Shown here in pieces: positions 1 through 7,232 of a stretch of DNA of 27,608 bases (the first letter of the stretch is position 1; the number at the start of each line of letters is the position of its first letter). The translations under genes were made by a program, and so were the position numbers. The stretch comes from a candidate division WOR-3 bacterium (GTDB lineage: Bacteria > Hydrothermota > UBA3072 > B12-G15): positions 4,540 to 32,147 of the forward strand of contig CBFGJG010000021.1 of NCBI GenBank assembly GCA_965649055.1, in the 5' to 3' direction. Below the pieces are notes generated by a model. It did no database searches. It saw nothing but the letters and a program-made list of their open reading frames with translations, and had not been told where the DNA came from.

Positions 1-21
1 GGCAATCCTCTCTTCATTCAT
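1..21 (-). CDS. Possible 5' end of a divergent gene running off the window (MNEERIA...)
   Basis: On the - strand, ATG at 21 is preceded by a purine-rich GATAGGGGTA and the frame is open to the window edge. Only 7 codons are visible. Confidence 0.3.
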
Positions 22-91
22 TACCCCTATCTTCACTATCAAAACTTTCCACCATGTGCATGAACTTTTCCAAAAATATTTATTATTTTTC

Positions 92-3054: not shown

Positions 3055-4362
3055 ATGTTTAAAAATGTGTGGGAAGTTATAACAGAAAAGGAAAAACAGG
3101 AAATGGAAAAGTTTGTTTCTGATTACAGAAGTTTTATTGAAAGATGCAAGACAGAAAGACTTGTTGCAGAAGAAGCGGAAGAGGTTGCAAAAAAATGGGA
3201 CATACCATATATTCTTTTCAGAAAAAAGACTATAGCAATGTTCAAACCATATGGTGACCCAATAAAAGATGGAATAAGGATTGTTGTAGCACATTCCGAT
3301 GTACCAAGGATTGATTTAAAACCAAGACCAGTTACAGAAGAAAATGAATTTGCTATGTTTAAGACAAGATACTATGGAGGGATTAAAAAATATCAGTGGC
3401 TATCTCTTCCACTTTCACTCTTTGGTGTTGTTTACAAAAAAAATGGTGAAGAAGTCAAAATAAAGGAAGACGAGATTGCATTTGTGATTCCAGACCTTGA
3501 ACCACATCTTTCGAGAAAATACGACGAAAAAAAGACAAATGAATACATAGAAGCAGAGAAACTTATGCCAATTGCAGGCTCAATCCCTTCAAAGATAAAA
3601 GAGGAAAGGTTTAAGAAAGGTGTCTTGGATTATCTTAAAAAGAAATATGGTATAGAGGAAGAAGAACTTGTTTCAGGTGAACTTGAACTTGTTCCTTCTA
3701 TAAATTCTATGGAAATAGGTGTTGATAAAGGTTTGATAGGTGCCTACGGACAGGACGATAGGGTCTGCTGTTATACTGCTTTAAGGGCATTGATGGGAAT
3801 GGGTGGACAGAAAAGGAGTGCACTACTTATACTTTTCGATAAAGAGGAGATTGGGAGTGTTGGGAACACAGGAGCACAATCAAATATAGTTGAGGATGCA
3901 GTTATAGAAATCCTTGAGAAACTGGGTATCGAAGCAAGCTATAAGAATGTGAGGAAGGCACTATTAAAATCAACATGTATTTCAGCTGATGTTAATGCTG
4001 CTGTGAATCCTCTTTTTTCTGATACACTTGACCCTAAGAATGCTGCAAGGCTCGGCTATGGTCTTGTTGTTACAAAATATACAGGTCATGGAGGAAAAGG
4101 TGGCTCTAATGATGCAAACCCAGAATTTATATCAGAAGTGCTCAAGATATTCGACGAAAATAATGTTCGTTGGCAGACTGGAGAGCTTGGGAAGGCTGAT
4201 GAAGGTGGTGGTGGAACAGTTGCAAGATTCCTTGCTTTTTTTGGGATTGAGATAGTAGATGCAGGGGTCCCTTTACTTTCTATGCATTCACCATTTGAGA
4301 TATCAAGTAAGGTTGATATATATGAAGCATACAAAGGATACAGGGCATTTTTTGAAAATTGA
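3055..4362 (+). CDS. M18 family aminopeptidase
   Basis: Motifs AHSDVPRIDLKP, YYGGIKKYQW, DDRVC, DKEEIGS, SADV and SMHSPFE. Confidence 0.93.
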   Translation: MFKNVWEVITEKEKQEMEKFVSDYRSFIERCKTERLVAEEAEEVAKKWDIPYILFRKKTIAMFKPYGDPIKDGIRIVVAHSDVPRIDLKPRPVTEENEFAMFKTRYYGGIKKYQWLSLPLSLFGVVYKKNGEEVKIKEDEIAFVIPDLEPHLSRKYDEKKTNEYIEAEKLMPIAGSIPSKIKEERFKKGVLDYLKKKYGIEEEELVSGELELVPSINSMEIGVDKGLIGAYGQDDRVCCYTALRALMGMGGQKRSALLILFDKEEIGSVGNTGAQSNIVEDAVIEILEKLGIEASYKNVRKALLKSTCISADVNAAVNPLFSDTLDPKNAARLGYGLVVTKYTGHGGKGGSNDANPEFISEVLKIFDENNVRWQTGELGKADEGGGGTVARFLAFFGIEIVDAGVPLLSMHSPFEISSKVDIYEAYKGYRAFFEN

Positions 4363-4381
4363 AAAAAATAAAAAATACCCC

Positions 4382-4409
4382 TTGACATTTTACTGTTTTA
4401 GTATATTTT
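4382..4409 (+). promoter_or_regulatory. Putative sigma70 promoter of the candidate sRNA
   Basis: TTGACA (4382-4387), 16 bp spacer, TATTTT (4404-4409). The same spacing recurs at other promoters in the window. Confidence 0.55.
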
Positions 4410-4412
4410 TTT

Positions 4413-4497
4413 ATTACTATTTTAACCCCCGATTATTTTCTCTTCATTTTTGCCCTCCTTCTGTAGGCTCGGATTTCCGAGCCTACAGTTTTTTTTT
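4413..4497 (+). ncRNA. Candidate small regulatory RNA with an anti-SD/anti-AUG pyrimidine tract (5' end approximate)
   Basis: Lies between a promoter and a perfect intrinsic terminator, has no credible ORF, and contains UUUUCUCUUCAUUUUUGCCCUCCUU immediately 5' of the terminator stem. Confidence 0.5.
4461..4497 (+). terminator. Intrinsic (Rho-independent) terminator
   Basis: Perfect 12-bp stem CTGTAGGCTCGG/CCGAGCCTACAG with an ATTT loop, followed by 9 T. Confidence 0.92.
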
Positions 4498-4505
4498 GTT
4501 AAACC

Positions 4506-4533
4506 TTGAAAAAATCAAAAAATCTAATATAAT
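4506..4533 (+). promoter_or_regulatory. sigma70 promoter of ppdK
   Basis: TTGAAA (4506-4511), 16 bp, TATAAT (4528-4533). SD AGGAGG at 4544-4549. Confidence 0.75.
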
Positions 4534-4553
4534 GTGAAAAAACAGGAGGTTCT

Positions 4554-7232
4554 ATGAGAAAATATGTATATTATTTTGGTGGTAAGAAAGCAGATGGAAG
4601 TATTAAGATGAAAAATATTATAGGTGGAAAAGGTGCTGGACTTGCAGAAATGACAAATATTGGTATACCAGTCCCACCTGGATTTACAATTTCAACAGAG
4701 GTATGCACTTATTATTACAAGAAAGGCAAATATCCAGCAGGTTTAAAGAAAGAAGTTGAAGAAGGGTTAGAAAGGATTGAGAAACTAACAAAGAAGAAAT
4801 TCGGAGATAAGAAAAATCCATTACTTGTTTCAGTCCGTTCAGGTGCAAGGGCGTCTATGCCAGGTATGATGGACACAATACTTAATCTTGGTCTTAATGA
4901 TGAAACAATTCAGGGTCTATTGGAAAAGACTAAAAATCCAAGATTCTGCTATGATTCTTATAGAAGATTCATCCAGATGTATGGTAATGTTGTATTGGGT
5001 ATAGAACATGAAAAATTTGAAAAGATTATAGACGAGGTTAAAGAGAAAAAAGGTGTCAAACTCGATATAGAACTTACAGGGGATGACTGGAAGGAAGTTG
5101 TGGAAAAATATAAGTCTATGATTAAAAATGAGATAAAGAAAGAATTTCCAAAAGAACCTTACGAACAGCTTTGGGGCGCTATTGAAGCGGTTTTTAAATC
5201 CTGGAATAACCAGAGGGCAATTGAGTATAGAAAAATTCACAACATACCTGATGATTGGGGAACGGCATGTAATGTTCAGGCAATGGTTTTTGGTAATCTC
5301 GGAGAGAATTCAGGGACAGGTGTTGCTTTTACAAGGAATCCTTCTACGGGTGAAAATGAGTTTTATGGTGAATATCTTATGAATGCCCAGGGAGAGGATG
5401 TTGTTGCAGGTATCAGGACGCCGCTCCCGCTGAGTAAGAAACAGAAAACAAACGGAAATGAGATAAGCCTTGAAGAGGCATCCCCGAAGATTTATAAGCA
5501 ACTACTTGATATCAGAAAGAAACTCGAATCCCACTTTAAAGATATGCAAGACCTTGAATTCACAATAGAAGATGGAAATCTTTATCTTTTACAGACAAGG
5601 TCAGGTAAAAGGACCGCAATGGCAGCAGTGAAGATTGCGGTTGATATGGTGAAAGAAAAACTGATAGATAAAGAAGAAGCTGTATACAGGGTAAAACCTG
5701 AGCATGTCGACCAGTTATTACACCCCATGATTGACCCAAAAGCAAAATTTACAGTTCTTGCAAAAGGACTCCCTGCTTCTCCAGGTGCAGCGACTGGAAA
5801 AGTCGTATTATTCCCTAAAGATGCTGTAGAAGCAAAAAAGAACAAAGAAAAGGTTATACTTGTAAGGCATGAAACATCACCCGAGGATGTTGCAGGGATG
5901 CATTCTGCTGAAGGTATATTGACAGCAAGGGGTGGAATGACATCGCACGCAGCGGTTGTAGCAAGGGGTATGGGTAAACCATGCATTGTTGGTTGTGAAT
6001 CTATTATAGTTGATTACGAAAAGAGGGAGATAAGGGTTAATAACGAAATCATTAAAGAAGGTGAATTGATAACAATAGATGGAACTACCGGTTCTGTTAT
6101 AAGAGGAGATGTTCCAAAGATAGAAGTATCTATAACAGGTGAATTTCAGAAGATATTGAAATGGGCAGACGAGATAAGGGTGCTTGGGGTAAGAACAAAT
6201 GCGGATACACCTTTTGATGCAGAAACAGCAAGAAAATTTGGTGCAGAAGGTATCGGGCTTGCAAGAACAGAGCATATGTTCTTCAAGGAAGACAGAATAC
6301 CAGCCATGAGAGAGATGATACTCGCAGATACCCTTGAAGAAAGGAAAAATGCACTTGCAAAACTTCTTCCTATGCAGAGGGAAGATTTTGAAGGTTTATT
6401 CAGGGCTATGGATGGTTTCCCTGTTATAATAAGATTGCTTGACCCTCCTCTACATGAATTCCTGCCAAAGGAAGAAGAAGCTCAGATAAAGATGTCCGAG
6501 ACTATGGGTATACCTATTGAGAAGATAAAAGAAAGGGTCCATCAGTTATCTGAACTTAATCCTATGCTCGGCCTTAGAGGGTGCAGACTTGGAATACTAT
6601 TCCCTGAGATTACAGAAATGCAGGCAAGGGCAATCTTTGAAGCTGCATGTAATGTTAAGAAAGAGGGAATAAAGGTTATCCCTGAGGTCATGGTTCCACT
6701 TGTAGGTATGGTGAATGAGTTGAAGCTCCAGAAAGAGATAATAGTAAAGGTCGCAGAAGAAGTAATGAAAGAGAAAAACGTAAGGATAAAGTATATGGTT
6801 GGAACAATGATTGAACTTCCAAGGGCTGCATTAACTGCGGATGAGATTGCACAGGAAGCTGAATTCTTCAGTTACGGAACAAATGATATAACGCAAACCA
6901 CATTTGGTTTTTCAAGGGATGATGTTGGAAAATATGTCCCGAGATATATAGAGCTTGGAATCCTGAAAAATGACCCGTTCCAGACACTTGACCAGATAGG
7001 TGTAGGTGAACTTATAGAGATCGGTATAAAGAAAGGGAGAAAGACAAGACCTGAACTTGAAATAGGAATATGTGGAGAACATGGTGGGGACCCGGATTCA
7101 ATAAAATTCTGTCACAGGGTTGGTATGAATTATGTTTCCTGTTCTCCTTACAGGGTTCCAATAGCAAGACTTTCTGCTGCACATGCAGCAATTGAAGATA
7201 AAAAAGGTGTTAAAGCAGACGAAACAAGATAA
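4554..7232 (+). CDS. ppdK: Pyruvate, phosphate dikinase
   Basis: [38 protein letters not shown] (phospho-His with adjacent regulatory Thr) and [10 protein letters not shown]. 892 aa. Confidence 0.98.

Follow-up and report, generated by a model that had tools for sequence, protein, structure and literature searches.

A candidate stand-alone small RNA gene with a conserved anti-Shine-Dalgarno tract in a WOR-3 lineage

Introduction

We describe a putative small RNA (sRNA) gene on a 27,608-nucleotide stretch of DNA from a candidate division WOR-3 bacterium (Hydrothermota; UBA3072; B12-G15), positions 4,540 to 32,147 of contig CBFGJG010000021.1 in assembly GCA_965649055.1; this whole stretch is called the window, and coordinates are those of the window unless another contig is named. 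The gene occupies positions 4382-4497 of the plus strand, where a TTGACA-16-TATTTT promoter is followed by an unpaired C/U-rich stretch of ~45 nucleotides (nt), a perfect hairpin of 12 base pairs (bp) and nine T residues. A preliminary description, made from the letters of the window, had proposed that it encodes an undescribed repressor sRNA whose pyrimidine tract is the antisense image of a ribosome binding site (RBS). Here we compare the window's genome (G000) with relatives among the 26 genomes of its class and in a phylum sample of 151 genomes, G000 included, and weigh what the RNA may do.

Anatomy of the locus

The promoter, the pyrimidine motifs and the terminator lie between the genes for an M18 aminopeptidase and for PpdK, all on the same strand:

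4382-4387, plus strand: -35 box TTGACA, beginning 20 nt past the aminopeptidase stop; kept in all six homologues
4404-4409, plus strand: -10 box TATTTT, after a 16-nt spacer; the promoter fits 10 of 12 consensus positions
4416-4497, plus strand: predicted sRNA of ~82 nt, its 5' end placed from the -10 box
4426-4430, plus strand: C-rich motif 1, CCCCC, unpaired; at least CCC in all six homologues, with two CCCCC runs in that of genome G025
4440-4447, plus strand: pyrimidine motif 2, CTCTTCAT, with an 'anti-AUG' CAT that is not strictly conserved
4450-4461, plus strand: anti-Shine-Dalgarno (anti-SD) block TTGCCCTCCTTC, containing TTGCCCTCCTT, which does not vary among the six copies; left unpaired by the predicted fold
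4461-4488 (hairpin) and 4489-4497 (T9), plus strand: intrinsic terminator CTGTAGGCTCGG-ATTT-CCGAGCCTACAG, 12 pairs, 8 of them G-C
3055-4362, plus strand: M18 aminopeptidase, upstream neighbour, outside the unit (Pfam PF02127, E 3.8e-86)
4506-4533, plus strand: separate ppdK promoter TTGAAA-16-TATAAT, outside the unit; fits 11 of 12 consensus positions
4554-7232, plus strand: ppdK, downstream neighbour, outside the unit (Pfam PF01326, PF00391, PF02896)

The sRNA promoter, the perfect terminator with its T9 and the promoter of ppdK beyond it are all present as the preliminary description had it. From about position 4416 the plus strand reads UUACUAUUUUAACCCCCGAUUAUUUUCUCUUCAUUUUUGCCCUCCUUC and then enters the terminator hairpin, with neither AUG nor GUG ahead of it. 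That hairpin is the only structure in the predicted fold of the 82-nt RNA (-23.3 kcal/mol, z -6.7, equalled by none of 200 shuffles), and the first ~45 nt stay unpaired. The genome has a G+C content of 31.6% and the region is AT-rich; promoter-like sites number 3 here against 4.5 +/- 2.3 in shuffled sequence, and terminator-like sites 2 against 0.8 +/- 0.8. By themselves, the promoter and terminator motifs are therefore no better than chance, and their significance comes from conservation in other genomes.

Conservation across genomes

Homologues were initially reached by BLAST of window positions 4200-4700 against 40 relatives, which placed the intergenic tract upstream of ppdK in G001 as well, and at unrelated loci in G002 and G024. 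From these three and the G000 sequence a covariance model (R2) was built; this model and its successor rebuilt from six (R3, alignment A4) find exactly one strong copy each in G000, G001, G002, G003, G024 and G025, with scores of 44-97 bits for R2 and of 72-94 bits (E <=5e-17) for R3; the window's own copy, at G000:C21:8953-9035 (window 4414-4496), scores 91.2 bits with R3 (E 1.4e-22). The sRNA is thus found in six of the 26 class genomes, namely all four of the window's family (f1) and the single representatives of families f3 and f4.

Beyond the class, it was not found in the 125 phylum genomes sampled, the next-best match anywhere reaching 39.7 bits. We reject the matches of 25-40 bits outside the class as false positives, their reverse complements resembling, by eye, real gene starts that follow a hairpin (MKKLFVL..., for example). 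Likewise, a scan for the exact core in 185,579 species genomes returned 25 loci, two of which are true homologues (G001 and G002), the remainder being antisense images of real gene starts, such as one in Streptococcus cristatus. A looser-core scan of metagenomes, which yielded at least 118 stretches, gave no new homologues, with none above 22.6 bits with R3 among the 80 matches listed.

All parts of the unit are kept together. CTTGACA is present in all six copies with a -10-like hexamer 16-17 nt downstream, which in the homologues reads, by eye, TAATTT, TATATA, TATATA, TATATT and TATATT at the same distance. Conservation is higher in the unpaired tract than in any other part, the stem included: TTGCCCTCCTT is invariant in six of six, a T-run of varying length precedes it, and upstream of the T-run come (C/T)CTCTT(C/T)AT and, still further 5', a CCC(CC) motif. 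Motif 2 takes the forms CCTCTTCAT, CCTCTTTAT, CCTCATTAT, CCTCTTCAT and CCCCTTCAT in the relatives. The terminator stem, on the other hand, differs by lineage yet stays paired, with 90% of alignment cells paired and five of the ten pairs changed on both sides; its covariation score is matched by 0 of 500 shuffles and is clearly lower in slid-register controls, for a set of six sequences. T-tails are weak in G002 and G003.

At close range, a contig from another hot-spring run is 6.3% diverged from the window over 1201 nt (76 differences, one gap). None of the 40 listed differences, which span 3939-4670 in order (32 others probably lie beyond 4670), falls within 4396-4497, and the -35 box is unchanged among them; differences do occur at 4377, 4395, 4498, 4524-4526 and 4536, and in both flanking genes.

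Architecture, conservation and covarying terminator are established by these comparisons, and promoter, core and terminator are maintained as a unit in six genomes of three families while the neighbouring genes differ. We consider it very probable, from the comparison of sequences, that the locus is an sRNA gene in its own right and that its anti-SD seed is conserved; the stand-alone gene of the preliminary description is supported, and the seed, whose conservation it wanted checked, is conserved.

Resemblance of the seed to the 16S rRNA tail

The 3' end of the G000 16S rRNA reads GGATCACCTCCTTTCA. Its tail, CACCTCCTTTC, is resembled by the invariant block TTGCCCTCCTT, which matches CCTCCTT(T)C of its own genome's 16S tail in the same polarity; the block is therefore close to the anti-SD tail of the ribosome that it shares a cell with. 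A copy of this polarity would bind Shine-Dalgarno (SD) sequences, and not the ribosome. The reverse complement of the tract resembles the consensus initiation region of G000, aaaGGAGGaaatATGaaaaaa.

Proposed function and predicted targets

In the mechanism that we propose, the gene would be read from a sigma-70-type promoter of its own (4382-4409) up to a terminator that is likewise its own (4461-4497), giving an ~82-nt non-coding RNA whose single-stranded first ~45 nt carry CCCCC, (C/U)CUCUU(C)AU and the invariant UUGCCCUCCUU. The RNA would act in trans, without Hfq, by pairing with the purine-rich SD and start regions of mRNAs, and once paired would compete with the 30S subunit, lowering translation. 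Transcription, the exact 5' end, base-pairing as the mode of action and the identity of the mRNA targets are here what we infer from sequence. In a metatranscriptome run (X6) of the same study as the DNA run that covers the locus best, no contig aligned to the locus, a result that carries no weight either way. Taken as a whole, a stand-alone RNA of ~82 nt that pairs in trans with SD and start regions and lowers their translation is the best explanation that we can offer, and one that is probable by a modest degree; translational repression of several mRNAs in particular we would hold to be rather likely, with ample room for doubt. Hfq (PF17209) was found in none of the 26 class genomes and in five of 14 control genomes, E. 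coli and B. subtilis included, and any pairing by the sRNA would thus have to be Hfq-independent, as it is in Bacillota.

Duplex energies were computed between the 38-nt open tract and 2064 translation initiation regions (TIRs) of G000. The mean is -13.8 kcal/mol with TIRs against -10.6 kcal/mol with internal coding sites, and duplexes of -22 kcal/mol or better form with 101 TIRs and 25 internal sites. The real tract beats all 16 composition-matched shuffles both in mean energy and in the count at or below -22 kcal/mol (52-91 for the shuffles).

The candidate targets are the TIRs of rpsD at C29:426 and of a 211-residue membrane protein at C1:88082, which rank at the top in G000. The SD of rpsD is GAGGAGGGU in all six genomes, and in the five other genomes, each paired with its own sRNA, the rpsD and membrane-protein TIRs fall in the top 0.2-7.5% of the G000 distribution. 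The ppdK TIR, despite its strong SD, pairs poorly with the sRNA (-16.0 kcal/mol, 32nd percentile, and 20th-56th percentile over four genomes). The conservation of pairing with rpsD and the membrane protein is suggestive only. A third candidate, the protein encoded on contig C66, was dropped, as only one of the five genomes has an orthologue. Separately, the short repeats GATTGCCACGC...GCTCGCAATGACA at G000:C4:2300-2420 (in tandem) and G024:C152:8990-9030 are purine-rich false targets.

A number of observations weigh against the proposed function, or against its details. The sRNA family was not found by either covariance model in any of the 20 genomes of family f2, and on this distribution it appears to be dispensable or replaceable. 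The 'anti-AUG' half of the tract is weaker than the anti-SD half, with CAU present in five of six copies (displaced in G003, and replaced by UAU in G002) and found at variable distances (3 to 7 nt) from GCCC. Positions 4435-4461 do reverse-complement to AGAAGGAGGGCAAAAATGAAGAGAAAA, as the preliminary description had read it, and the anti-SD part of this RBS image, invariant in all six, stands; the anti-AUG part does so less well, and a TAA that went unmentioned follows directly, leaving a minus-strand frame of MKRK-stop only. The tract is better described as two or three predicted SD-binding pyrimidine motifs on an open arm.

The target predictions carry weaknesses of their own. The TIRs come from 2071 G000 genes called by a crude heuristic of open reading frame (ORF) plus SD, and their enrichment over shuffles is small (shuffle means of -12.3 to -13.6 kcal/mol against -13.8 for the real tract), because any C/U-rich 38-mer pairs with purine-rich TIRs. 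No G000 site other than the gene itself matches the complement of the 26-nt core with five or fewer mismatches. The pattern GGAG-N4-11-ATGAAGAGRAA, searched for in five genomes (all of the six but G025), has four matches and yields no in-register mRNA target: three are the sRNA genes themselves, and the fourth, on G024:C152, is a hairpin in a repeat with no gene start. GGAGGGC, which complements the sRNA-specific part exactly, is found 40 times in total and never in a called TIR. Furthermore, the two candidate targets were pre-selected as top matches in G000 and compared with one control gene and a background taken from G000 alone, and their conserved pairing may reflect merely the conservation of strong SDs.

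Relation to known regulators

At its gathering score, the Rfam scan of the window returned tRNA only, and a scan of 301 nt at E <=10 gave 14 chance-level matches, none of them RsaE. The covariance model of RsaE/RoxS, Rfam RF01820, has no match to the sRNA. No Rfam family therefore matches it, and a literature search with the seed sequence gave nothing relevant among the matches listed.

The design itself has precedents. The csRNAs of Streptococcus carry an unpaired region with anti-SD and anti-AUG sequences that was proposed to block TIRs (PMC3091779), and a block of translation initiation by csRNAs was demonstrated for comC (PMC4507080). In Bacillota, sRNAs with C-rich regions include RsaE/RoxS, FsrA and CsfG (PMC8216469, PMC6158497), and RoxS and FsrA pair with SD sequences (PMC8216469). 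The claim of the preliminary description that the regulator is undescribed does not hold for its mechanism, given the unpaired anti-SD and anti-AUG sequences of the csRNAs (PMC3091779), and this too counts against the original proposal. The sRNA makes up a new family within a kind of regulator that is already known, and its proposed mechanism has been described before.

The sRNA resembles the csRNAs in being a short stand-alone RNA with a terminator hairpin at its end and no Hfq (PMC3091779), and in its unpaired anti-SD of CCUCC type accompanied, usually, by CAU; here CCCUCCUU is invariant and CAU is present in five of six copies. It differs in that two stem-loops flank the csRNA tract as described in that source, whereas the sRNA forms the 3' hairpin alone (extra A/U pairing seen in a longer fold lies upstream of the predicted start). 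Its promoter is of a plain TTGACA/-10 type, whereas that of the csRNAs is CiaR-dependent. No CiaR-type repeat is visible upstream of the sRNA. There is no similarity in sequence or model, the sRNA is single-copy per genome whereas csRNAs occur as several siblings, and its host is an uncultured hot-spring lineage and not Streptococcus.

With RsaE/RoxS, the sRNA shares several unpaired C-rich motifs, which in RsaE/RoxS pair with the G-rich SDs of multiple mRNAs and here are predicted to pair, as well as the form of an Hfq-independent, single conserved gene with its own promoter and terminator. Unlike the motifs of RsaE/RoxS, which are placed in loops and linkers, those of the sRNA lie on one long unstructured 5' arm, and its anti-SD extends to 11 invariant nt resembling the 16S tail. 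RoxS, for its part, is described as controlled by Rex and ResD.

A second C-rich element of G000 was observed at C53:11633-11705 on the plus strand, reading UUUCCCCC...UUUCCCC with a GTGGGGAAAG/CTTTCCCCAC stem and T4, with a tRNA gene adjoining it on the opposite strand. R3 matches it weakly (25 bits), and it could be a further sRNA of the C-rich kind.

Alternative explanations

If the gene is a real and independent sRNA, its tract could still serve as a protein platform, or as a sponge for one purine-rich RNA, instead of blocking the RBSs of multiple mRNAs. Conservation covers about 35 nt of the unpaired region, far beyond what an SD complement needs, and the target searches found no convincing specific mRNA. 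Hfq is absent from the hits in all 26 class genomes, which also fits this explanation, and there is a precedent for sponge pairing between G-rich and C-rich RNAs in RosA and RoxS (PMC8216469). Nevertheless, the invariant block is nearly the 16S anti-SD, TIRs are better pairing partners of the tract than coding interiors are, and no candidate protein gene travels with the sRNA, the neighbours being different in every context. We think a platform or sponge unlikely, and count it as the strongest competitor of multi-target repression.

A further explanation concerns a mobile-element-like repeat that is present in at least 17 copies in G000, all at contig ends, and breaks the assembly:

Window 1-71, minus strand: repeat copy
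Other G000 contigs with repeat copies: C1, C3, C6, C20, C24, C38 (both ends), C41, C44, C47, C49, C50, C58, C68, C69, C73 and C82

The repeat begins with TGGAAAAGATCATGCACATGG, ~20 nt after TTGTCAAG, and continues into a hairpin, GGATTGCCC-N6-GGGCAATCC. Its ORF begins MTYNILANNK..., which, read from the sequence, looks like the helix-turn-helix N-terminus of a transposase. The GG-N10-GC spacing of the first bases of the repeat resembles that of a sigma-54 promoter, and an Rfam search with the element found nothing meaningful.

In a duplex scan of both strands of G000 (166,136 windows; mean -8.9, standard deviation 4.6), the repeat is the best partner of the sRNA after the gene's own antisense, with duplexes of -43.3 kcal/mol for the G allele and -37.9 kcal/mol for the T allele and 0 of 200 shuffled sRNAs as good for either allele (shuffle mean -26.5). 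It could be, then, that in G000 the sRNA mainly restrains the repeat by pairing with the 5' leader of the transposase-like mRNA. Such a role is suggested by the repeat being the best duplex in the genome besides the gene's own antisense, at 17 or more copies; by the -43.3 kcal/mol of the G000 sRNA against -29.5 to -34.7 for the sRNAs of the five other genomes; and by the dependence of pairing on an insert of ~45 nt, older and truncated copies that lack the insert scoring -18.7.

However, four of the six genomes with the sRNA (G001, G002, G003 and G025) gave no match to the repeat, while its end (the first 30-56 nt, at 90-96% identity) is present in 13 of the 20 f2 genomes, which have no sRNA. 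Because repeat and sRNA are so differently distributed, the sRNA family cannot exist for control of the repeat. Moreover, an unrelated site on C25 scores -39.3, between the two alleles; the likely start codon, with a strong SD of its own, comes ~70 nt after the paired region, which also overlaps a stable hairpin; and an in-frame upstream AUG goes out of frame, by eye, in copy C24. We therefore regard restraint of the repeat as the main role in G000 as quite improbable. The repeat is possibly an extra, lineage-specific target, and not the reason for the sRNA family. The small RNAs of IS10 (RNA-OUT) and IS200 (art200/STnc490) control transposase translation as antisense RNAs that are encoded in cis within their own element and are perfectly complementary to their target. 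Only if the repeat is a target would the sRNA resemble them, in that its pairing would then be with a transposase-like mRNA, at the 5' leader; even so, it differs from them in being chromosomal, conserved where the element is missing, and partly complementary. A mixed scheme, in which a host-encoded copy of the anti-SD tail tunes G-rich initiation regions and has in addition been tuned in G000 to silence an expanding mobile element, seems to us just as doubtful. The CCUCUU to UCUCUU change of the G000 lineage, which improves pairing with AUGAAGAGAGGAU of the element, and the rank of the element's 5' leader among complementary sites of the genome belong to this scheme; if true, it would be a trans-acting, chromosomally encoded sRNA defence against transposition.

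A third possibility is that there is no sRNA gene, and that the sequence is the 3' untranslated region (UTR) and terminator of the aminopeptidase joined to a chance promoter, or else a leader or attenuator of ppdK. The window copy does share its strand with the two genes that enclose it, the aminopeptidase gene, which stops ahead of it, and ppdK; the region shows no excess of promoter-like sites; the G001 copy is also upstream of ppdK; and the ppdK promoters of f2 (CCCCTTGCAT...TATATTTT) resemble the sRNA promoter of the window. The six loci, in which > marks the direction of transcription on the strand of the sRNA, are as follows:

G000: M18 aminopeptidase > sRNA > ppdK
G001: TetR (other strand), then sRNA > ppdK
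G002: CobA/BtuR (other strand), then sRNA, convergent with an ABC transporter
G003: aromatic amino-acid lyase (other strand), then sRNA, convergent with the same ABC transporter as in G002
G024: FrhB-like > sRNA, convergent with plsY
G025: unknown gene (other strand), then sRNA, convergent with a DUF4416 gene

This synteny already contradicts both versions. The aminopeptidase precedes one copy of six, and at four of the six loci the gene upstream lies on the opposite strand, so that the unit needs a promoter of its own and no upstream gene can supply a transcript of which it would be the 3' UTR. As just two of the six copies adjoin ppdK, a ppdK leader is removed as well; the -35 box is invariant, and ppdK has a separate promoter after the terminator, and a promoter-like site with TTGAAA can be read by eye in G001, too, past the sRNA terminator and ahead of ppdK. 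The independence of the sRNA from its neighbours is thus established, and a ppdK leader, or the aminopeptidase 3' UTR that the preliminary description had named as a refutation, is very unlikely.

Two sets of observations were made on neighbouring genes. In family f2, the promoter and leader of ppdK (L017, L021-L026, L015), CCCCTTGCATTTCT...TATATTTTGTGAGCA, are highly conserved and lie ~90 nt before the start of the gene, and this promoter resembles the sRNA promoter of the window, CCCCTTGACA-N16-TATTTT; the regions upstream of ppdK contained no sRNA, just the conserved promoter and leader, in the nine readable of 12 loci tried (eight f2, one f6). In G024 (L071) and G025 (L073), the plsY and DUF4416 frames run ~23-24 codons into the sRNA gene, past their Pfam domains, and the sRNA and the convergent mRNA 3' ends may overlap there in antisense.

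Least likely of all, and barely credible, is that the tract is the decayed start of a gene once present on the minus strand, or else a mini-ORF of that strand, for although the minus strand reads as a hairpin, AAGGAGGG-N6-ATG-AAG-AGA-AAA-TAA, an arrangement that the weaker model matches elsewhere in the phylum (25-40 bits) show, by eye, at apparent real gene starts, and although AGA to AGG between G000 and G001 would be synonymous, the mini-frame is not conserved (by eye MKRK-stop, MKRK-stop, none with ATA for ATG, MRK-stop, 12 codons and 8 codons), it is the plus strand that carries the T-tails and the invariant promoter, and a relic would not stay invariant over three families or in a relative that is 6% diverged.

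Significance

Small RNAs are normally found by transcriptomics in cultured strains and, to our knowledge, regulatory sRNAs are almost unknown in uncultured candidate lineages; few are on record there because their discovery relies on such transcriptomics. The present gene, with its promoter, seed and covarying terminator, is complete and is defined by comparative genomics alone, which places it among very few in a candidate lineage. It belongs to no Rfam family, and its seed is an unusually exact mimic of the 16S tail. For follow-up experiments it provides testable material: an RNA of 82 nt, an invariant seed of 11 nt, two candidate targets and one mobile-element leader.

If the proposed multi-target repression is true, the 'anti-RBS' design of the csRNAs and of RsaE/RoxS would have arisen independently in a distant, Hfq-less and thermophilic lineage. 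This would support the notion that mimicry of the ribosome's mRNA-binding tail is a general and easily evolved route to a translational repressor.

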